Both the position numbers and the translations under genes were made by a program. Positions 39,983 through 51,622 of a stretch of 64,000 nucleotides of DNA are shown here, piece by piece (position 1 is the first letter of the stretch; every line of letters begins with the position of its first letter). The notes under the pieces were generated by a model. The model saw only the letters and a list, made by a program, of their open reading frames with translations, was not told where the DNA came from and searched no databases. The DNA comes from Myxococcales bacterium (GTDB lineage: Bacteria; Myxococcota; UBA727; GCA-2721815): contig PBLQ01000061.1 of NCBI GenBank assembly GCA_002721815.1, positions 108,905 to 172,904 of the forward strand, in the 5' to 3' direction.

Positions 39983-41146
39983 ATGAAAAACGGTAAAGAC
40001 AAAAACCAACCCAAAGTCACGGAGGCGCTGCTCAAGAGCTTGCCGAAAACCGATCTGCACTGCCATTTGGACGGTTCCCTGCGCTTAAAAACCATTCTCG
40101 AACTGGCCCAAAAGCACGCCGTGAAATTGTCCGCGTCCAATGAAGACGATTTGGCAAAAGCCATTCACATGGGTGAAATTTGTACCGACCTTCCAAGTTA
40201 TTTGAAGGCCTTTGATATTACCTGCAGTGTTTTACAGACCGCTGATGCACTGGAGCGGGTGGCTTACGAGTTGGTTGAAGATGCGGCGGCTGAAAATGTT
40301 TGGCATTTGGAAGTACGCTACGCACCGGTGTTGCACACCTTTCGCGGGTTGTCCCTGGCCCGTATTGTTGAATCGGTCCTGTCCGGGCTAAAGGCAGGCG
40401 AGCGAGACTTCGGTGTGAGCACGGGTGTTATCATTTGTGGCATTCGTAACATCGACCCTCAAGAAAGCTTTCGGTTGGCAGAGTTGGCAGCCGCCTATAA
40501 AAACCACGGTGTGGTGGCCTTTGATTTGGCCGGTGGTGAAGCGGGTAACCCAGCCAAAAAACATGCCGCGGCCTTCGACTTGGCTTTAGACAACAACATG
40601 AACAGCACCGTTCATGCCGGCGAAGCGTACGGGCCTGAGAGCATCAAGCAAGCTTTGCATTATTGCGGTGCCCACCGTATTGGTCACGGAACCCGTTTGG
40701 CTGAAGATGGTGACCTGCTCAATTACGTATTGGATCAACGCATCCCGCTGGAAGTCTGCTTGTCCAGTAATTTACAGACCAGCGTCGTCCCCGAACTCAA
40801 ATTGCATCCCTTGCGTTTGTTTTATGATTTGGGGGTTCGGGTTTCTTTAAACACCGACAATCGCCTGATCACCGATACCACCGTGACCAAAGAGCTCATG
40901 TTGGCCCACCAGCATTTGCGTTTTACTCTTGAAGAATTAAAGATTTTATTGGTGCAAGGATTCAAAAGTGCGTTTCTCCCTTATAAGTCGAAACGTGCCC
41001 TTTTGGTGCGCGTCAACGATCGCATTGAAGAGTTAACGGGAAGCTTGCCCCAAGGCGCCATTCTAAGTGAAGGCGTACAGACGGATGACTTACCGGATGC
41101 GTTAAAACCGGATGCGTTCGCGCACATTGAAACCGATCGCGTTTAA
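39983..41146 (+). CDS. add: Adenosine deaminase.
   Basis: LPKTDLHCHLDGS, VHAGE and SLNTDN metal/catalytic motifs. The upstream 250 aa of the tabulated ORF overlap rluD and were rejected. ATG at 39950 is an alternative. Confidence 0.8.
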   Translation: MKNGKDKNQPKVTEALLKSLPKTDLHCHLDGSLRLKTILELAQKHAVKLSASNEDDLAKAIHMGEICTDLPSYLKAFDITCSVLQTADALERVAYELVEDAAAENVWHLEVRYAPVLHTFRGLSLARIVESVLSGLKAGERDFGVSTGVIICGIRNIDPQESFRLAELAAAYKNHGVVAFDLAGGEAGNPAKKHAAAFDLALDNNMNSTVHAGEAYGPESIKQALHYCGAHRIGHGTRLAEDGDLLNYVLDQRIPLEVCLSSNLQTSVVPELKLHPLRLFYDLGVRVSLNTDNRLITDTTVTKELMLAHQHLRFTLEELKILLVQGFKSAFLPYKSKRALLVRVNDRIEELTGSLPQGAILSEGVQTDDLPDALKPDAFAHIETDRV

Positions 41147-41751
41147 GGCGTCGTTCCCGCATCCAGTTTTTTTTGATTTGCCTCTAACATTTTGACGGCC
41201 ACCACTGCTTGTTCCACCCGAGCAATTTCGGTGAGCGCTTTTTGATATTTGGGCATGAGCGCTTTCATTTGTTGTTTGCGCTTCACATAATTTTGAAAGG
41301 CGCCAGATTCATAAGCTGTTTGAGGAAAAGGTTCCGGGAAATCTTCTTGCATGCGCTTCCAAGTTTCATCGATGGCTTGCGCTTGTTGAACACGAACTTG
41401 GCTGCGGCTGCCCTCTTTTTGGGCGCGTTCCCGGGAGCGACTTTGAATGAGTATCAACAGGGTTTGAAGCTGAGCGGGGGGCATGGTGTTTTGGAAATGT
41501 TGAAAACGGGCCAGGGTATTTCGATGCTCAGCTTTGGTTTTTTGAGCCAGCTGGTGCGTGGTTTGCATTTGAGCCAAGGCCGAATCCAAGAGCTGAGCCC
41601 GTTCTTTGAGGTGACTTTGCCAGTTTTTCGAGGTTTGAACCGCTGCGGTAGGGACCCGGTCGGAGGACGCATCCTTGGGACAAGCGCTCGTACACGCCAC
41701 GACCACTGCCAGTGAGGCTCCTATTTGGGCCCAAGAACGGTAAAAATGCAT
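41143..41751 (-). CDS. Hypothetical lipoprotein (helical, Gln-rich).
   Basis: Internal start MHFYRSWAQIGASLAVVVAC, with lipobox VVAC. Confidence 0.45.
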   Translation of the reverse strand: MHFYRSWAQIGASLAVVVACTSACPKDASSDRVPTAAVQTSKNWQSHLKERAQLLDSALAQMQTTHQLAQKTKAEHRNTLARFQHFQNTMPPAQLQTLLILIQSRSRERAQKEGSRSQVRVQQAQAIDETWKRMQEDFPEPFPQTAYESGAFQNYVKRKQQMKALMPKYQKALTEIARVEQAVVAVKMLEANQKKLDAGTTP

Positions 41752-41873
41752 GAAAAACGCACTTTTAGAGCGAACAGGCCTTGCTTCCTTGGATTCTTTG
41801 GTGTTTTGATAGCCGAGCAAATCTTCCCTCGCCATAGGCGTTCATAAAGCTTCATACCCGAAGGAGCCAGCCG

Positions 41874-43703
41874 GTGTCAGCCTTTCTGCTCAAAAACCCA
41901 CGAAGTCACAATTGTAACCAACTCACCAAGGACAATCTCAACGAAGAAGTGGTCCTGATGGGCTGGGTGAACAGCTTGCGCGATCATGGCGGCCGACGCT
42001 TTGTTGATCTTCGCGATCGATACGGCTTAACGCAAATCGTATTTAAGCCCGAAACCGACGAAGCTTTGCATCAGTTGGGCCATGCCATGCGAAATGAGTG
42101 GTGCATCGGCATTCGCGGTGTGGTGGAAGATCGTGTGGCCAATGGTGGGGCACCCAACACCCGTCTGACCACAGGCGAAATCGAAGTGAACGTGTTAGAG
42201 GTGGAAGTGTTTAATGCCGCGGAAACACCGCCCTTCATGGTTGAAGATAATGTGGACACCCATGAAGAAAAGCGGTTGCAACATCGAACCATCGATCTGC
42301 GGCGTGCACCCATGCAGCGTAATTTCATCATGCGTCACAAAGTGGCCCAGGCGGCTCGACGCGCATTAGATGACGACGGGTTCTTAGAAATCGAAACGCC
42401 CATGCTGGTGAAATACACGCCAGGTGGGGCGCGTAACTTTATTGTGCCTTCGCGTTTACACCCAGGCAGCTTTTACGCCTTGGCTGAGAGCCCCCAGTTG
42501 TACAAACAAATGTTGATGATGTCGGGTTTCGATCGTTATTTCCAAGTGGTGAAATGCTTTCGTGATGAAGATTTACGCGGCGACCGTCAACCTGAGTTTT
42601 CTCAAATCGATTTGGAAATGAGCTTTGCTTCGGAACGTACGGTCCAAGAGGTGATCGAGCGGTTGGTTACTCGAATTTTTAAAGACGTACTCGATCATGA
42701 CTTGCCTCAAGTCTTTCCGAGCATGACTTACCATGAGGCCATGACCCGTTTTGGTTCGGATAAACCAGACACGCGATTCGGCTTAGAGTTGAAAGATCTG
42801 ACGGCTTGCCTCAAAGACATTGGGGGCGGCGGTGTTCCTCTGTTCGCTCAAACCATCGACCGGGGTGACATTATCAAATCCATGGTGGTGCCCAAAGCAA
42901 ACCCCATGTCACGCAGTGAAGTAGACAAGCTAGAGGGCTTGGTGAAGTCTTTAGGTGGTTTTGGTTTGGGACGGGCGAAAGTCGGGGAGGATGGCGCTTC
43001 TTGGACCCAATCACCGTTCTCCAAACACGTGACGCCGGAAGGCATTCAAGCCATTCATGAGGCCACGGGTGCACAGCCAGGCGATTTAATTTTGTTTCAA
43101 ATGGGTAAGGCCAAATTAGTGAACACCGTGTTCAATGGACTGCGACTCAAACTCGGCGCTCAGTTCGGTCTCATTCCTGAGAGTGGCCCCGATGCTTGGC
43201 ACGTGATGTGGGTCACTGACTTCCCGTTGTTTGAGCATGACGAAGAGAGCAATACTTTTGCTGCCGCGCACCATCCGTTCACATCCCCCCAAATGGGCCA
43301 TGAAGACAAGTTAAAAACCGACCCCGGTGCCTGTCTCAGTCGTGCCTATGATTTGGTGATTAACGGAAACGAAATTGGTGGGGGCTCCGTCCGGATTCAC
43401 GATCAAGAAGTTCAAGCCAAAGTATTTGATGCCATGGGCATCGGTGAAGAAGAGAAACAGGCCAAATTTGGTTTTCTCCTGGACGCGCTCAAATATGGTG
43501 CGCCACCTCATGCGGGCGTGGCGTTGGGCTTGGACAGGCTCTGTATGCTCTTGTCGGGGACTCAATCCATTCGAGATGTGATCGCATTTCCCAAAACACA
43601 GCGCGGACAAGACGCGGTGACTGGTGCGCCCACGCCTGTGGATCTACAGCAGTTGAATGAGGTTTATATCGCTTCTACCGCTCCTGACGATGAAGACGAT
43701 TAA
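41874..43703 (+). CDS. aspS: Aspartyl-tRNA synthetase.
   Basis: RSHNCNQL N-terminus, class II motifs FRDEDLRGDRQPEF (motif 1/2 region) and GGGSVRIHD...G(L)DRL (motif 3), plus the GAD insertion. Confidence 0.95.
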   Translation: MSAFLLKNPRSHNCNQLTKDNLNEEVVLMGWVNSLRDHGGRRFVDLRDRYGLTQIVFKPETDEALHQLGHAMRNEWCIGIRGVVEDRVANGGAPNTRLTTGEIEVNVLEVEVFNAAETPPFMVEDNVDTHEEKRLQHRTIDLRRAPMQRNFIMRHKVAQAARRALDDDGFLEIETPMLVKYTPGGARNFIVPSRLHPGSFYALAESPQLYKQMLMMSGFDRYFQVVKCFRDEDLRGDRQPEFSQIDLEMSFASERTVQEVIERLVTRIFKDVLDHDLPQVFPSMTYHEAMTRFGSDKPDTRFGLELKDLTACLKDIGGGGVPLFAQTIDRGDIIKSMVVPKANPMSRSEVDKLEGLVKSLGGFGLGRAKVGEDGASWTQSPFSKHVTPEGIQAIHEATGAQPGDLILFQMGKAKLVNTVFNGLRLKLGAQFGLIPESGPDAWHVMWVTDFPLFEHDEESNTFAAAHHPFTSPQMGHEDKLKTDPGACLSRAYDLVINGNEIGGGSVRIHDQEVQAKVFDAMGIGEEEKQAKFGFLLDALKYGAPPHAGVALGLDRLCMLLSGTQSIRDVIAFPKTQRGQDAVTGAPTPVDLQQLNEVYIASTAPDDEDD

Positions 43704-46435
43704 GAATTTTCGGTCATAAATTTGAGCCAGAGCAGGGTCCCATCCTGGTCGGTTTGCAGTGACGCTGGATGGCGAAGTTCAATGCGCAATGAAACGCGGT
43801 GCCGGCCATCTTCCTCCACATGGGGCAAGAGCCGCACCACGCTGGCATCAATATCCGAGGCGTCCAAAATACGTCTCACTTTCAGATTGCCTGCGCGTGT
43901 GTCTAAGAGTTCGACAATATAGGTTGTCGGACTTTCTTGTTTGACCGAATACTTTGCGCCCCCGCTGATTTGAACCCCAACGCTACTGCTTGCGTCTTTG
44001 TTTTTTACCACCATGAGACGGTTGAGCACGTTACGGCCCGGTTCATCATTTTTTGGGTTTGACAGCCCACCAAAGCGCCGCGTTGCTTTCTTTTCCACTG
44101 GAACCTGCCAGTATTGGTTTTTGAAATGTAGGATTTGTGCAGTGAGACGATCTTCATTGGGTGTGGGCTTCATTTGAGTCTCAGGGGTGTCAGCCCTATT
44201 GTCGCGGCGGGATAATTTGAGTTCTTCTTGTTTTTGATTTCGCAATTCGAAGATCTCTTTTTGCAAGTGATGTTTTTCCTGGGCCATTGTTTTCATCTGT
44301 TTTTGGACCTCTTCGAAGTGCTGGACTTGCGCCAATCGTTTTTTCTCATTCGCTTTTTCGAGGTCTTGGGTCTGTTGGAGCGATGTCCGAATGGCTGCTT
44401 CTTGGGTTTTTAAATCATTAAGAATCTTGGTCTTGGCTTTTTCTTGCGCCGCCCTTTGCTGGAGCAGTTCATCCATCTTCTTTTTTTGTTGGGATAAAGC
44501 CATGAGACGGGCTTCTTGTTCTGCTTGAAGGGACGATTTCTCTGCCAATGTTTGACTCAGTTCCGTTTCCTGCTTTTGTAGGTTTTGAAGCTGTTTCTTT
44601 TGCTGCTCTTGCTCAGCGCTGATGAGTTGGATTTCTTTTTCCATCTTTGCTTTCAGGCCCGCCAGGTGCTTCAGCTCTGTTTGGTGATTGCTTTGAATCT
44701 TTTGGTGTTGGGTTAACAAGCGGTCCTGATCGGTTTGGGCGATTTGTTGGTGTTCAATATAAGCCTGTCGCTTCGCTGCCAATTGTTGTTCAAGCGTCAC
44801 ACGCTCGGTCTTTAACCGACGCAATATTTGCTCTTCTTTTCGCATCAAGCGTCGCTTTTGCTGAAGTTTTTCTTGTTGTTCTTCTTCTGTTTCAGCGAGG
44901 AGGATTGCCTTTTCGTTTTGGGCCAACTGCAGTTCTGTTTGCAGCTTGAGCCTTTGGGCTTGAAGGAGGTTGACCGCGTGGGTCTCCTGTCGCAACAGTT
45001 GCTCCTTTTCTTCGATAATAAGTTCTTTCTCTTCTTTCGATTTCTTCAGAAAAGCTTTGTGTTGTGACTGGTATTGCTGGATTTCAGTCTTCAGTTTTTT
45101 TCGGGCCGTTCGCAATGTCTCTATTTCACTACGTTTTTGCTTGAGTTCCGCTTCTTTTTCGAGGAGTGCTGCTTGTCTTTCCAATCTGAGTGCTTCTCGC
45201 TCTTTTTGACCTCTGGCCAAAGCTTGTAAGAGCTCTTTGTGAGCGAGTGATTGGTTGTGCAGTTCCTGTTGCAGTCGCGTTTTTTCATCTACGAGAAATT
45301 CGAGTTCTTTTTGTTCCTTTTCTATATTGACCAAATTTTGTTGTCGCTTTTTGGCGGCTTGGGTGAGGGCCCGCAGACTGACTTCTTCATTCTTTTTTCG
45401 CTTCACCAAGGCGTTGATTTCATTTTGGAGCTTTTGCTTACGGTCTTTTTCATTGGCCCATTCATTGTCCATTCGCGTGTTGAGGGTTTGGGTTTGGATT
45501 TGGATGGTGGCGAGCGTTTCTTGTGCTTCTTGGAGTTCCCCTCTCAACTCAAAGAGCTGGTGAGAGGCGGTGTCACTCTTTTGCGTTAATTTTTCCAGTT
45601 CTGCTGATTTGCGTTCGTACATGCCTTCCAAGAGCTTGATGTCTTGCAGGCGTGCCTGACGCTCCGCTTGGTTTTTGGTCACTTCTCGTTGCTGAGTGTT
45701 TCTGGTTTGTCGTGTTTCTTGTAACAGGGTCAGCATTTCTTCCCGTTTTTCTTGGGTGGCTTGGAGCATGTCTCTGTGTCGTTGGTCTTGCTGCAAAACC
45801 TTCTCGTGCAACTGGGCCAACAGTTTTTCTTTGTTGGCTTGTTCCTGGAGCAGTTGTTTTTGGTGGGTTTCCAGGATTTTCGCGGTCCGGTTGACTTCTT
45901 TTTTGAGTCGTTGGAGTTCTTTTTGGGTTTTGGCCTGTTCCTGTTTGATGAGGCTTTGTTCGGCTCGAGCGGCTTTTTCCAGTTGGGTGCGGGCTTGAAA
46001 ACGCTTTTTCTTCAGGGTGATGAGGGCCTTTTTTTCTCCTAAGTAGTTGAATTCAAAAGCAATACCCCTTTTTTGGCCTTTGATTGCGTATTCCACCGGG
46101 CCATTGAAGATCAGCAGGGCGCGGGGGTTTTGAATGTGGCGCCCCTGCCGTTGCTCGAAAATGATGTCGTGCAATAAGAGCCCGTCGGGGATTTTCGGGG
46201 TGGGCAAGTCGGAAATGTTCACCCCGGGCAGATCAATGGCATAGCGATTGTCTTCTCCCAGACTGTAGATTTGAAAGCCGGGCAACTTATTGCCCTGAAT
46301 GCGAAAGACCGCTTTTTCGTGTCCGTCCAAATGAATGGAGACTTTTTCAATTTTGGATGGTGTGGCCCAGACCGTTTGCCCGGCGCAAACGGTGACCAAA
46401 AACAAAAACAAAGAAAGGCGGGTTAGGTGTTGCAT
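43700..46435 (-). CDS. Periplasmic giant coiled-coil protein: signal peptide, N-terminal AMIN-like domain, ~600-aa Q/E/K-rich coiled coil, C-terminal AMIN-like domain.
   Basis: MQHLTRLSLFLFLVTVCAGQTVWA signal. KVSIHLDGHEKAVFRIQGNKLPGFQIYSLGEDNRYAIDLPGVNI matches the AmiC/PilQ AMIN pattern (...RLVIDLPG...). Continuous heptad-like EQ/KL-rich sequence follows. Confidence 0.55.
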   Translation of the reverse strand: MQHLTRLSLFLFLVTVCAGQTVWATPSKIEKVSIHLDGHEKAVFRIQGNKLPGFQIYSLGEDNRYAIDLPGVNISDLPTPKIPDGLLLHDIIFEQRQGRHIQNPRALLIFNGPVEYAIKGQKRGIAFEFNYLGEKKALITLKKKRFQARTQLEKAARAEQSLIKQEQAKTQKELQRLKKEVNRTAKILETHQKQLLQEQANKEKLLAQLHEKVLQQDQRHRDMLQATQEKREEMLTLLQETRQTRNTQQREVTKNQAERQARLQDIKLLEGMYERKSAELEKLTQKSDTASHQLFELRGELQEAQETLATIQIQTQTLNTRMDNEWANEKDRKQKLQNEINALVKRKKNEEVSLRALTQAAKKRQQNLVNIEKEQKELEFLVDEKTRLQQELHNQSLAHKELLQALARGQKEREALRLERQAALLEKEAELKQKRSEIETLRTARKKLKTEIQQYQSQHKAFLKKSKEEKELIIEEKEQLLRQETHAVNLLQAQRLKLQTELQLAQNEKAILLAETEEEQQEKLQQKRRLMRKEEQILRRLKTERVTLEQQLAAKRQAYIEHQQIAQTDQDRLLTQHQKIQSNHQTELKHLAGLKAKMEKEIQLISAEQEQQKKQLQNLQKQETELSQTLAEKSSLQAEQEARLMALSQQKKKMDELLQQRAAQEKAKTKILNDLKTQEAAIRTSLQQTQDLEKANEKKRLAQVQHFEEVQKQMKTMAQEKHHLQKEIFELRNQKQEELKLSRRDNRADTPETQMKPTPNEDRLTAQILHFKNQYWQVPVEKKATRRFGGLSNPKNDEPGRNVLNRLMVVKNKDASSSVGVQISGGAKYSVKQESPTTYIVELLDTRAGNLKVRRILDASDIDASVVRLLPHVEEDGRHRVSLRIELRHPASLQTDQDGTLLWLKFMTENS

Positions 46436-47028
46436 GCGTCCCTCGTGTTTGAACAAGTTCTCGACATTAACAACCCGATCCTGATCGTCAACTTTATGAA
46501 CGTTTTTAAAGGGTTCGCAGCGTCGAGACTTGTAGTTTTTTCAGGGCCGAAGAAAAAGAGCGAGACCGCGTTTGAGAAAGTGTTGCGAGTTGATTGGAGT
46601 GGGAGGCGGCGCTCGCTCCAAGGGCATTCTTGCAGCACCACTTGAGGTTGCCCCTTTAAGTCCTTGAAAATGATCCAATTTTAAAATTTCGAGGGCTGGG
46701 TTTTGTGAGGCAAACCCCTGCTGCGGGCGCCGGGTCATCCAGTGGAAAAAAGGTGGGATAAACGCCTACTGTTTGCAAAGGTGGATGGCTCAGGCTGATG
46801 GAGTGGCTCTAATAGAGCCAAGGTGGAATGGCCGTGGTGGGATGTGCGTCAGAAGCCCAAAGCGGCTTTAATGAGTGTTTGAGGGCAAAAAAAGCGGTTT
46901 GGCACCCAATTTTTGCAAAAACCCATGGAAAACGAGGGGCATAATAGGTAGGTTTCACCGGATTTTGATTCAGGCTCGAGACCCCATCTGAGGGGATCAA
47001 GGCCCATTCGCTTATAAGGAGACAGATA

Positions 47029-47708: not shown

Positions 47709-47738
47709 AACCGGTCTCTAAGGCCGGTTTTTTTTTAC
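47709..47738 (+). terminator. Rho-independent terminator after ahpC; may act bidirectionally for the convergent deacetylase gene.
   Basis: AACCGG-TCTCTAAGG-CCGGTT hairpin followed by T9; an A-run lies on the other side. Confidence 0.6.
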
Positions 47739-48844
47739 CCTGAGATGTAATCGCCGCGAGCGGACTCTGAACCCGTGAGTACCAGTAGTGTTTCGTCCAA
47801 GGCAGAGGAAAGGCCTTGGAGCTCATAGGCTTCGAGAATCGGAGACTTTTTGGACAGCAACAGTCGGGGTAAGGCGTAAATATGGTCTCCAGGACGTGCG
47901 ACGCCTTCATCTGCATGCATGGCCCCCAAAAAACCAACTTCCATGGCTCTTTGAAGCAGTTCTGGCGCCAGTTGCTTTTGGTGGCCAAAAGGAAAACTTA
48001 AAACATCCACGTAACTTTTGCCGCAGGCGTCCCGTAAAATTTGTCGACATTGATGCAGTTCGTTGATGAGACGGTCGGGGGCCAAAGAGAGCAGCGGGGC
48101 ATGGGTGTGACCATGAGCACCAAAGGTCAGCAATGGGTGGTCGGCCAGTTCGCGAAGAGATTGAAGGTCCACGTGTTGATCGATCATGCTTGGTCTCGGA
48201 CCCTCAGGTGCAAGCTCCCTGAGAGTGGCCATGCGTTGCTCTCTCTTCTCATCGCTCAGATTGATGAGATGTTTAAGCAGATCCAAACCGGTTTGATACG
48301 CCTCTTCGGCTGGATATGTGGCCAGCTGGCGATCCATCCAAGGGAGGCTGAGATGGGCAGGGCTGATGGTGGCCAATAACCCGTGCACCTCTTCGTCCCA
48401 CATGAGCGTTTGGTCTTGTTCGAGGTGAGCGGAACAGAGGAAAAAAGTTGCGGGTACATTCAATTTTTCTAGAATGGGCAACGCTGCATCCAGTGACGAA
48501 CGGTACCCTTCATCAAAAGTTAATACCGCGTAGCTGCGATCCAGAACCTTACCCGCACGAAGCATCGCCATGGCTTCGCCCAGATAAAGAATGGGCATGT
48601 GTTTGCAGACCTCTTGAAGTAAACGCTCCAGTTGGTTCGGAAAGAGCGCTCCGGGATTGTGCGCCTCTCGGTGGTGCTCTCCAAAAGCATTTTGAGGCAA
48701 AACTCGCCGACAGCGCAAAATGACGATGGATGGTCCACGAAGCTTTTCCGATACATTGTGTAATAGTTTACGGGTGAGAGTGTATTTCAGCACCTTCTTG
48801 AGGGAATTCTGGGTTTTTTGTTTAAGCCATTTCCGCGGAATCAT
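47735..48844 (-). CDS. Polysaccharide deacetylase (NodB-homology, CE4) family protein.
   Basis: VLTFDEGY (DD/E-G motif), and FFL...H / HGHTHAP His-rich motifs of CE4 enzymes. Confidence 0.6.
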   Translation of the reverse strand: MIPRKWLKQKTQNSLKKVLKYTLTRKLLHNVSEKLRGPSIVILRCRRVLPQNAFGEHHREAHNPGALFPNQLERLLQEVCKHMPILYLGEAMAMLRAGKVLDRSYAVLTFDEGYRSSLDAALPILEKLNVPATFFLCSAHLEQDQTLMWDEEVHGLLATISPAHLSLPWMDRQLATYPAEEAYQTGLDLLKHLINLSDEKREQRMATLRELAPEGPRPSMIDQHVDLQSLRELADHPLLTFGAHGHTHAPLLSLAPDRLINELHQCRQILRDACGKSYVDVLSFPFGHQKQLAPELLQRAMEVGFLGAMHADEGVARPGDHIYALPRLLLSKKSPILEAYELQGLSSALDETLLVLTGSESARGDYISG

Positions 48845-49071
48845 GCCCGGTCCTTTTCATGGCTGTTATCGCAAAAAGGGGCTGAATCGGATTGGCGACA
48901 GTTACAAATCCTCACGCAAGCGGTTTTAGGTTGATAAAAAACCAATGGGGCCAGTTTATTTTCTTTTTTATGAGAGCCATCGCACCATGGTAGGTTTCGA
49001 GAGGCGCCACACCGGCACCAGGCATAGGTACCCACGGGCAGCTCGATTTGTAGCGGACCTATGGGTTTCAT
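48841..49071 (-). CDS. Double CDGSH iron-sulfur domain protein (mitoNEET-like Zn-finger/[2Fe-2S]).
   Basis: Two copies of C-x-C-x(8)-C-DGSH: CRCGASRNLPWCDGSH and CNCRQSDSAPFCDNSH. 4-nt overlaps on both sides. Confidence 0.75.
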   Translation of the reverse strand: MKPIGPLQIELPVGTYAWCRCGASRNLPWCDGSHKKENKLAPLVFYQPKTACVRICNCRQSDSAPFCDNSHEKDRA

Positions 49072-50627
49072 TGGCGCTGTCCCTTACGTGGGATGTATTT
49101 CTCTTTAACGCCCTGTCGTCGAAGGTATTGCTTGATCCGATCGTATTCGGGTTCGTCGCCCGGTAACTTCAAGTGGGCCAGATAGTGTCTTTTGGCGCGT
49201 CCAAAAATATCCAATCCGGCGTAGGCGTCGCCCAGGTGGCGATGCGCTGTGGGGTGCTTTGGGAATCGTTGGACGCATTTTTGAAGCTGCTTAATTCCTT
49301 TTTGCACCCGTGACGGATCTTGAAACGTGCGAACGGTCAAAAGCCAGCCGTAACGACAAGGCGCCTCTTGGGCTTTCAATTTTTTGAATACAGCGTCCAT
49401 GAGGTCAAGTTGACCCATCTTGGCGTGTAGCTCTGCCAATAAGAACTGGGCTTCTACCATTTTTGGGTGTTTTTTGAGCAGTCCTTCCACGTGATTTTGT
49501 GCCTTGAGAGGAACACCTGCATTCATTAAACCCAAGGCCACTTTATATTGTAGCATCGTGGATTCAGGGGCCAAAGCAGCAGCATCCATGAGATGGATGA
49601 CACTCATCTCTTTTTCCCCTTTTTGAAGTACGAGCTCTGCAAGGGCGAGGTGGAAACGGGGATCTTGGCTGTATAGTTTGCGACTGGCGCGGAGCACGGT
49701 CAGACTCTCAACGATGTTGGTGTCGCGTTTGTTGTAGGCGTGTAGCAAGGCCATTTGTGGCGAATCTCCCACCATTTCTGAATAGCGTTGCGCGGCGGCC
49801 TGAAGAAGTGATTTACTGTTCATGGCATGGGCCATTTCCCCGATCCAAAAAAGGGTTGCCGCAGGGAGTTCTTGGATATTTAAAGACTGAAGTAAGGCCA
49901 GTGATTGATGACGCTGATTGTTGTGTAGTAAATGCAATGCGCTTACAACTCGAATCCAGGGTGATGTGGCTTGTTGAGGCGTTACTTCATTGAGTATCTT
50001 GGTTGCTTCCTGTGTGTTGACCTTCTTTAAAGGTGCACCGTCAATCAGACTGAGCACCAGCAGAGATTGGCTGATGGGGTTTTGAGGGTTCAAGCTCACG
50101 GCCCGGCGAGCCGCTTTTTCTTGATTGATGAAATCGAGAAGACGCCGATGCAACAATGACTTTTGGTGCAGGATTTTGATGGCTTCGGGTCCCTGTCGCG
50201 CGAGCACCGAAATCTCGTTGAGTTGCTGGAGTGCTTTATCGTAAAACCCCTGCTGAACATCGATGCGAATGAGTCCCAACAAGGCTTTGGACTCAAACCG
50301 TTTCTCTTTGAGAAGCTCATTTAATGCTTGTTTTGCCTTGTCGTATTCTTCGAGCTGAATATTGACCAGGGCGATGTGATACTTCAGACGGAGGCTTTTG
50401 GGGTATTCGTGCATGCCTTCGCGAAGGTGTTGCCTCGCCTCAAGGGGTTGTCCCTCCGAAAGAAAACGGTTTGCCACACGAATGCGCAGCGAGATGTTTT
50501 GCTCGTGTCTGTTCTTCTCCTTGCGAACTTGTTGCAAATGCTCTCGTTGTGATTCCAGCGTGACGTCTTGATCATTACAACCGAACAGAATGGCGAGAAT
50601 GAAAAAAAAAGGAAGGGTTCTGTTCAT
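49068..50627 (-). CDS. TPR-repeat lipoprotein.
   Basis: MNRTLPFFFILAILFGC lipobox, then ~12 TPR-like 34-aa helical repeats (W/LG/Y/A/F/A/P patterns). Confidence 0.65.
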   Translation of the reverse strand: MNRTLPFFFILAILFGCNDQDVTLESQREHLQQVRKEKNRHEQNISLRIRVANRFLSEGQPLEARQHLREGMHEYPKSLRLKYHIALVNIQLEEYDKAKQALNELLKEKRFESKALLGLIRIDVQQGFYDKALQQLNEISVLARQGPEAIKILHQKSLLHRRLLDFINQEKAARRAVSLNPQNPISQSLLVLSLIDGAPLKKVNTQEATKILNEVTPQQATSPWIRVVSALHLLHNNQRHQSLALLQSLNIQELPAATLFWIGEMAHAMNSKSLLQAAAQRYSEMVGDSPQMALLHAYNKRDTNIVESLTVLRASRKLYSQDPRFHLALAELVLQKGEKEMSVIHLMDAAALAPESTMLQYKVALGLMNAGVPLKAQNHVEGLLKKHPKMVEAQFLLAELHAKMGQLDLMDAVFKKLKAQEAPCRYGWLLTVRTFQDPSRVQKGIKQLQKCVQRFPKHPTAHRHLGDAYAGLDIFGRAKRHYLAHLKLPGDEPEYDRIKQYLRRQGVKEKYIPRKGQRQ

Positions 50628-51622
50628 CGATGGGTACCGCAAGCATTGGCAATCGCTCGTTTTACGAAAACGCTAACCATCTCTTTGCGCCAATCTGGGT
50701 CGTCACATATGTTGGTAAGGGGTCGGCATCTTTTTTGAGCCAATGCAGCGATGTCATTAATGACTTCATCGTCCAAAATTTTACCAAAGAATGGGGCCAG
50801 TTTGATTGCGCGAGGTTTGGCCGCCAAAGCATTGACGATAAGGGCCGCGCTCTCAATGGTTTTATCGTCTTTCAGATCGATACGAACGCCAACAGAAAGC
50901 ATGGGGTAGTCAATACTTTTTCGGTGTCGCAGTTTAGCGAAACCCTCTTTGCGTGCCACGTTTTTTTTGGCTTTCGGAATACGTACTTTGGTGAGAATTT
51001 CTGTGGGCAACAATGTGAGGTTGTCTGCGCCATCTGATTTATAAAGGTCGGGAAGGGGGATCCAGCGCGGCCCGCTCGCATCGTTAATCTCTACTTCGGC
51101 GTCCAGGCACAGCAGCATGGTTGCCGTGTCGTTTGAGGTGGCTGCGACACATTTTTTACCCCCTTGTACAACATGACAGACGGAACCATCTTTTTTGAGA
51201 CAAAACCCCAATGCTTCGCGCCAAAAATAAGTCTGGTTGTAATACAAGCAACGGGTGTCGAGACAAAGGTTGCCACCTAAAGTCCCCATGCGCCGCAGCT
51301 GAGGCCCGGCGACAGCATCTGCCGCTGTGGCCAAACCGGGCACATATTTCAAGACCAAAGGATGGTGGGCAATGTTATGCAGGGTCACACCCGCACCGAT
51401 TTCGATGGCATCCGCGGTTTCTTCGAGGGTCACCAAATCTTTGATTCTGCCGATGTGGACCACTGCTTGGGGTTCATGCAAACCGTGTTTCAAGTTTGGA
51501 ATTAAGTCCGTACCCCCAGCGCATAGTTTGGCTTTACCTTGCAGGTTTTCCAAATGAGTAACTGCTTCATCAATGGTGGTTGGATAATGTGTTTCAAAAG
51601 GTTGCATGCGCAGCATGATCAA
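50624..51622 (-). CDS. Molybdenum hydroxylase (xanthine dehydrogenase / CO dehydrogenase family) FAD-binding medium subunit.
   Basis: LCAGGTDLIPNLKHGL FAD-binding motif. Lies downstream of the large subunit. Confidence 0.8.
   Translation of the reverse strand: MIMLRMQPFETHYPTTIDEAVTHLENLQGKAKLCAGGTDLIPNLKHGLHEPQAVVHIGRIKDLVTLEETADAIEIGAGVTLHNIAHHPLVLKYVPGLATAADAVAGPQLRRMGTLGGNLCLDTRCLYYNQTYFWREALGFCLKKDGSVCHVVQGGKKCVAATSNDTATMLLCLDAEVEINDASGPRWIPLPDLYKSDGADNLTLLPTEILTKVRIPKAKKNVARKEGFAKLRHRKSIDYPMLSVGVRIDLKDDKTIESAALIVNALAAKPRAIKLAPFFGKILDDEVINDIAALAQKRCRPLTNICDDPDWRKEMVSVFVKRAIANACGTHR

Follow-up and report, generated by a model that had tools for sequence, protein, structure and literature searches.

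The window analysed here is a stretch of 64,000 nucleotides from a Myxococcales bacterium (assembly GCA_002721815.1, contig PBLQ01000061.1, positions 108,905 to 172,904). It carries a TTG-initiated open reading frame (ORF) at 43700..46456 (-) with 918 amino acids (aa), as described in a first-pass annotation of the DNA. The product is predicted to be a Sec-exported protein with an AMIN domain at each end of a long coiled-coil rod (Table 1). The gene is real, as two other metagenome assemblies contain orthologs with kept synteny. Translation likely starts at the ATG of residue 8 (46435) rather than at the TTG at 46456: a GAGGG Shine–Dalgarno sequence is located 5 nt upstream, and the aligned methionine of the ortholog P0002 (47–49% identical) is the start of that protein. 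An identical protein with a later annotated start, P0001, is on record for a 'Myxococcales bacterium' metagenome-assembled genome (MAG) under the name 'hypothetical protein'.

Table 1. Predicted features of the AMIN–rod–AMIN gene and its upstream region, in positions of the window.
Feature	Position	Strand	Remarks
Likely true coding sequence	43700..46435	(-)	911 aa plus stop; ATG is M8 in TTG numbering
Conserved upstream block	46436..46506	(-)	Aligned with the orthologous intergenic region of locus L001; putative promoter/5′ untranslated region
Predicted Sec-type signal peptide	46364..46435	(-)	M8–A31 (TTG numbering); signal peptidase I site VWA/T, by inspection
N-type AMIN domain	46037..46351	(-)	Residues ~36–140; motifs PGFQIY (family PTFQVF) and IDLPG
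Coiled-coil rod	44207..46036	(-)	~610 residues (~141–750); Q/L/E/K-rich
Linker	44033..44206	(-)	Residues ~751–808; Pro/Gly/charged; motifs NQYWQV and RRFGGL
C-type (cryptic) AMIN domain	43703..44032	(-)	Residues ~809–918

AMIN domains such as those of AmiC (4bin) and PilQ B2 fold into a beta sandwich of eight strands. A domain of this type had been suspected behind the signal peptide, to be checked with the Pfam model PF11741. The hidden Markov model itself matched neither the whole protein nor the isolated N-terminal region, even at E ≤ 10 (gathering score 20.5 bits). Pfam and NCBIfam scans of the protein and of both termini returned, besides a sub-threshold SMC match, a SUKH-3 match at E = 0.19 and no AMIN. 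Single-sequence searches of the PDB with each terminus yielded chance matches only. The evidence for AMIN came from the family. The clean profile A3, built from the N domains of 22 family members, matched the PDB sequence of AMIN1 of Myxococcus xanthus PilQ (3jc8) with E = 2.9e-7, and both have the motifs PTFxVF and (V/I)(D/E)LPG in common. The homologous domain is recognised by PF11741 above the cut-off in the relatives P0022, P0007, P0015 and P0005 (35.7, 28.5, 24.9 and 23.5 bits, respectively). An AlphaFold (AF2) model of the N domain is all-beta with 8 strands and a predicted local distance difference test (pLDDT) score of 89.7. Its top three Foldseek matches were AmiC 4bin (template modelling score 0.70), PilQ 3jc8 and PilQ 4av2, each with a probability of 1.00. 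Profile, relatives and modelled fold assign the N-terminal domain to AMIN, as first suspected.

The C-terminus is more divergent. PF11741 matched neither the C domain of the window protein nor those of the core relatives, of which 20 were scanned, and the C-domain profile had no match among PDB sequences. The link to AMIN is transitive. In a whole-library phmmer search, the window C domain matched the C-termini of P0040 and P0043–P0048 with E values of 1.7e-6 to 1e-3. A clean core C-domain profile (A4) covered the C-termini of these divergent proteins over its full length with 38–83 bits and that of P0041 with 30.6 bits. The C-terminal residues matched by A4 in P0046, P0047 and P0048 are also the best Pfam AMIN stretch of these proteins (whole-protein 53–64 bits). 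As A4 and Pfam AMIN converge on the same residues, the C domain is assigned to AMIN as a divergent, Pfam-cryptic form. The AlphaFold model agrees; it is all-beta with a pLDDT of 90.8, has the AMIN fold and matches the AMIN folds of PilQ. AMIN-type motifs, LVLTLFDT and RRILD, are kept. Thus, the AMIN-like character claimed for the C-terminus held, and the PF11741 check had a divided outcome: the direct Pfam search was negative at both ends, whereas profile, transitive and fold evidence was positive for both.

Within the family, the C domain has a near-invariant signature, DTRAxNLxVRRILDA...LP.V.E...LW. The linker just upstream carries one or two (G)FGG motifs and an NRYxR-like motif across 30 relatives. 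The two AMIN domains of the window protein show no detectable similarity to each other in direct comparison, with E = 0.75 by BLASTP; the N profile reaches only weak scores of 7–11 bits on C domains from divergent members. Matches to C domains by an iterated local N profile were set aside as possibly contaminated, in favour of the clean-profile test.

The region between the AMIN domains is a helical rod poor in proline and glycine. Residues 121–757 include 0 prolines and 4 glycines, and Q, L, E and K constitute 58% of the rod. Hydrophobic periodicity has its maximum at 3.5 residues, with a local power of z = 8.4 versus shuffles. The alignment with P0002 provided a second line of evidence: the rods are separated by just three indels, of 7, 35 and 14 residues, all of them heptad multiples under three alignment settings. 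The chance expectation for three such indels is ~(1/7)^3. P0004 (30% identical) was left out of this test, as its rod alignment is unreliable. Indels in exact heptad multiples indicate a real coiled coil under register selection, and the long coiled coil of the first-pass annotation is supported by both periodicity and indels. All three indels are located in the C-terminal third. The N-terminal half has no mirrored change, which disfavours an intramolecular antiparallel hairpin. The length would be ~90 nm if the coiled coil were fully extended. Conservation is much higher in the two termini than in the rod. The rod is also visible in the base composition: window positions 44001–46000 have an AT skew of -0.49 and a GC content down to 0.46, versus ~0.51 in the flanks, due to A-rich Q/E/K codons on the minus strand.

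Export is suggested by the leader, which consists of MQHLTR, LSLFLFLVTVCAG and QTVWA, followed by TPSK after the cleavage site. Its n-region is short and basic, its h-region spans 13 residues, and a V-x-A site follows. The prediction of a signal peptide is based on inspection of these n-, h- and c-region features and on site conservation; P0002 has VKA/E, and an AxA-type site is present by inspection in all 22 of 22 core family members. The signal peptide proposed from the sequence is thereby corroborated, with cleavage probably at VWA/T. A single cysteine is preceded by valine at -1, lies outside any lipobox and is not conserved, hence the protein is not a lipoprotein. The non-marine relatives P0005–P0027 have a conserved RLRxRxD(V/L)G n-region ahead of the h-region, which is absent from the marine clade of the window protein. 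A twin-arginine (Tat) signal was considered for this n-region and rejected, since the RR pair is not conserved.

Homologs are difficult to find with the rod in place. Word-indexed searches were either swamped by coiled-coil words or nearly empty, with P0001, P0002 and P0003 as the only results. With the rod cut out and the termini fused into one query, an exhaustive phmmer search identified 47 cluster representatives at E ≤ 1e-3, including 35 at E ≤ 1e-10; many match both ends. All full-length core members (22/22) have a signal peptide, an N-AMIN, a helical spacer poor in proline and glycine, a Pro/Gly/acidic linker with FGG and NRY motifs, and a C-AMIN. The spacer is variable. Its length ranges from 204 to 720 aa in the core family and decreases to ~45 aa in P0046, a divergent member; even the closest pair of orthologs differs by 56 aa. 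Heptad periodicity was detected in the clade of the window protein and in six other members (z of 3.3–11.4). About half of the family has a non-periodic spacer that is charged or Ala-rich, for example P0006, P0008, P0010, P0017, P0020, P0024 and P0027. The charged non-periodic spacers contain 47–59% charged residues and 0.17–0.33 i/i+4 opposite-charge pairs per residue, resembling ER/K single alpha-helices. Because length and physical type vary while the ends are conserved, the rod is regarded as an evolvable spacer.

Two members have multiplied the N-type domain or a part of it. In P0041 (1047 aa), a single C-type AMIN comes after four N-type AMINs in tandem, and P0039 (1001 aa) has eight repeats of ~95 residues whose similarity to the N-AMIN profile is limited to the first half of that profile. 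The names of family members are uninformative: 'hypothetical protein' or, once (P0043, IMG), 'colicin import membrane protein'. MAGs with the labels Myxococcota, Myxococcales, Deltaproteobacteria or 'bacterium' account for the named sources and for all five matches in the species-representative genome collection. Judged by these searches, the family is rare and confined to uncultured Myxococcota.

Close relatives have the gene order ahpC, the AMIN–rod–AMIN gene, a convergent aspS, add and rluD in common. The stop codons of the gene and aspS overlap in the palindrome TTAA (43700–43703), leaving no space for a terminator between them; the same 4-nt overlap is present in the ortholog locus L001. 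A search for a functional partner gene in the neighbourhoods of eight loci revealed none, only residual aspS synteny and clade-specific neighbours. Distant family members have either a loose aspS proximity or unrelated neighbours. A polysaccharide deacetylase (PF01522) and a large tetratricopeptide repeat (TPR) protein are encoded just past ahpC at 47735–50642 (-). This pair may be relevant to the cell envelope; its arrangement is kept in L001 and is not conserved in more distant loci. A 230-aa ORF without a Pfam match is located at 41143–41835 (-), with aspS on one side and the adenosine deaminase gene on the other. Its internal methionine is followed by a lipobox-like AVVVAC, and the rest is helical and rich in Q, K and A. 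The ORF is absent from L001, where the syntenic gap is only ~250 bp. In a groundwater MAG (locus L003, 1–12747; relative P0008), the family gene is beside genes for ComEC, three consecutive bactofilins and a CHAP-domain protein. These neighbours are not common to other family loci.

Upstream, a gap of ~590 bp separates the gene from the divergent ahpC. In comparison with L001, just two short blocks of this intergenic region are conserved, one proximal to the gene and one near ahpC. The gene-proximal block covers 0–70 nt upstream of the ATG. It includes a promoter-like TTGACG at 46486–46491 and the Shine–Dalgarno sequence at ~46441–46445; a simple sigma-70 scan made no call in this block or elsewhere upstream of the gene. 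Near ahpC, the conserved stretches are AAAATCCGGTGAAACCTA at 46949–46966 and CCATGG.TTT.TGCAA at ~46915–46928, which may be promoter or operator elements of ahpC. An Rfam scan of the intergenic region had no match. The complex regulation that had been read into this region did not find support; with no Rfam match and only two short conserved blocks, nothing unusual is indicated.

A function as a two-ended periplasmic tether or scaffold is proposed. The protein would be Sec-exported, soluble and non-enzymatic, with its ends docked on the peptidoglycan. We give this reading a probability of about 0.5. Pfam and NCBIfam scans of the protein detected no catalytic or channel domain. A soluble wall-bound tether or scaffold is suggested because the protein consists of two AMINs and a rod only. 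AMIN domains are confined to exported proteins (PMC2572700). The AMINs of AmiC and PilQ bind septal and polar peptidoglycan and are needed for localisation to division sites and poles (PMC10653833). By analogy, both AMIN ends may dock on peptidoglycan. The simplest option for the rod in the marine clade is a parallel homo-oligomer, which would place the N-AMINs at one end and the C-AMINs up to ~90 nm away. This length far exceeds the width of the periplasm, so the rod would have to lie in the plane of the wall. The linker with the FGG motif between rod and C-AMIN may be flexible. Such a tether would be multivalent if oligomeric and would probably be captured at division sites and poles. The analysis establishes the gene itself, the features of an export signal, AMIN at both ends, the coiled-coil nature of the rod and a two-ended layout kept across the family; signal cleavage, oligomeric state, orientation, peptidoglycan binding, localisation and physiological role are inferred. 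A wider formulation is more doubtful: the family could represent a new class of oligomeric AMIN–rod–AMIN struts that bridge peptidoglycan sites 30–100 nm apart in a non-covalent manner and serve as a septal or polar scaffold or landmark in Myxococcota, with the C-type AMIN as a new subfamily with its own ligand.

Several observations weigh against a tether with both ends on the wall. Pfam recognises neither end in the window protein itself, and no conserved neighbour gene at the eight loci compared suggests a pathway. The rod is far from ideal; hydrophobic occupancy of the a and d positions is only 0.5–0.67, and ~11 register segments with many shifts suggest frequent stutters. The two ends are also unlike each other. 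The clean profiles A3 and A4 align with an hhalign probability of 1.9% only, columns with at least 90% conservation number 30 in the C-AMIN and 10 in the N-AMIN, and the mean net charge is +3.2 (basic) for the C-AMIN and -3.5 (acidic) for the N-AMIN. In view of this unequal conservation and opposite charge, the ends may bind different targets, one of them perhaps a protein rather than peptidoglycan. The protein could then be an adaptor of dual specificity. Its N-AMIN would sit on septal or polar peptidoglycan, the C-AMIN with the FGG and NRY motifs would bind a partner protein or an envelope polymer, and the rod would space the two. The threefold number of near-invariant columns, the opposite charge, the conservation of short linear motifs just before the C-AMIN across the family and the lack of detectable similarity between the clean profiles fit this alternative. 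It is nevertheless considered unlikely; a candidate partner is missing among the conserved neighbour genes, the C domain keeps the AMIN fold and the motifs LVLTLFDT and RRILD, and a basic surface suits the anionic peptidoglycan equally well.

The wall-bound tether also has to be weighed against three other readings. A connector similar to TolA would retain an uncleaved signal anchor in the inner membrane, cross the periplasm with its helix and grip the wall with the C-AMIN, which would couple the inner membrane to peptidoglycan. The helical region of delta-proteobacterial AMIN proteins has been likened to TolA (de Souza et al. 2008, PMC2572700), the IMG name of P0043 points in the same direction, and the h-regions of non-marine relatives, behind their RLRxRxDxG n-region, are longer with 16–17 aa. 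The h-region of the window protein, however, is short, with only ~13 residues, and leads into a V/A-x-A site that is conserved. No TolA C-terminal domain and no TolA match in Pfam or NCBIfam were found, the neighbours are aspS, ahpC, deacetylase and TPR protein genes instead of tolQR or pal, and a rod of 610 residues exceeds the periplasmic width by a factor of three to four. This connector is improbable for the window protein. Even less credence is given to the periplasmic ruler of the first-pass annotation, which would fix an envelope dimension as modelled on Lpp. Rigidity, a binding module at either end of the rod and a register under selection, visible in the heptad-multiple indels, would suit a ruler, yet the distance between the AMINs is not kept. 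It spans ~45 to 720 aa within the family, with a difference of 56 aa even for the closest pair of orthologs; about half of the members have exchanged the coiled coil for a helix without periodicity, either charged or rich in Ala, and a lipid anchor is absent. The ruler claim thus lacks support. Finally, the reading as a coiled-coil protein of the cytoplasm akin to SMC or myosin, or as a spurious ORF of low complexity, was ruled out. A match of the coiled coil to a cytoplasmic SMC-like family had been named as a refutation of the first-pass reading; the sole SMC match, SMC_prok_B (TIGR02168), involves rod residues only and reaches 20.7 bits against a family cut-off of 567.35 bits, with neither ATPase head nor hinge. 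The signal peptide and the AMIN matches at both ends, domains of exported proteins only, contradict such a protein, as do conserved orthologs with termini more constrained than the rod.

The structural reading of the first-pass annotation was essentially correct, with independent profile and fold evidence behind it. The annotation also regarded the architecture of this protein as not described. This is true in part. An AMIN domain with a TolA-like charged helical region was reported from delta-proteobacteria as architecture (viii) by de Souza et al. (2008; PMC2572700), who also found AMIN almost always in an N-terminal position. The family of the window protein is likened to architecture (viii) by its published description. 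Both have an N-terminal AMIN followed by a long charged helix, both are exported proteins of delta-proteobacteria or Myxococcota, and architecture (viii) is known from bioinformatics alone. A second AMIN is not part of that description, whereas the divergent C-terminal AMIN is the best-conserved part of the family studied here. The literature search found no experimental study of AMIN–helix–AMIN proteins and no second, C-terminal AMIN across a rod. The novelty thus appears to lie in an AMIN protein with two ends and in its cryptic C-type AMIN subfamily. Only the second, C-terminal AMIN looks unreported; the N-terminal half has the bioinformatic precedent of 2008. The impact is limited by the rarity of the family, its restriction to uncultured Myxococcota, the lack of linked genes and half of the architecture having been noted in 2008. 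AMIN annotation would gain a profile for a new subfamily.

AMIN domains provide the best-understood route by which periplasmic machines, among them division amidases and the secretins of type IV pili, locate the septum and the poles. To our knowledge, all characterised AMINs are located at the N-terminus of an enzyme or a channel. Among the closest known relatives are the AMINs of PilQ (M. xanthus 3jc8; Neisseria meningitidis B2, 4aqz/4av2). The N domain resembles AMIN1 by profile, and both ends resemble PilQ AMIN folds. Unlike PilQ, the window protein lacks an N0/N1/secretin module, an outer-membrane part and pil neighbours, and its AMINs are separated by a rod and not arranged in tandem. In contrast to AmiC of Escherichia coli (4bin), it has no Amidase_3 or any other catalytic domain. 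A long helical or coiled-coil element in the periplasm next to peptidoglycan is also present in TolA (domain II), Lpp, EnvC and CpoB. The window protein differs from TolA by the absence of a transmembrane anchor and of TolA_C, from Lpp by the absence of a lipobox and of a fixed length in the family, from the amidase activators EnvC and NlpD by the absence of a LytM (Peptidase_M23) match at E ≤ 10, and from CpoB by the absence of TPR. Its rod is several times longer than the helical element of TolA, Lpp, EnvC or CpoB. If both ends bind the wall, the protein would be a purely structural, wall-associated element of the periplasm, of a kind of which very few are known.

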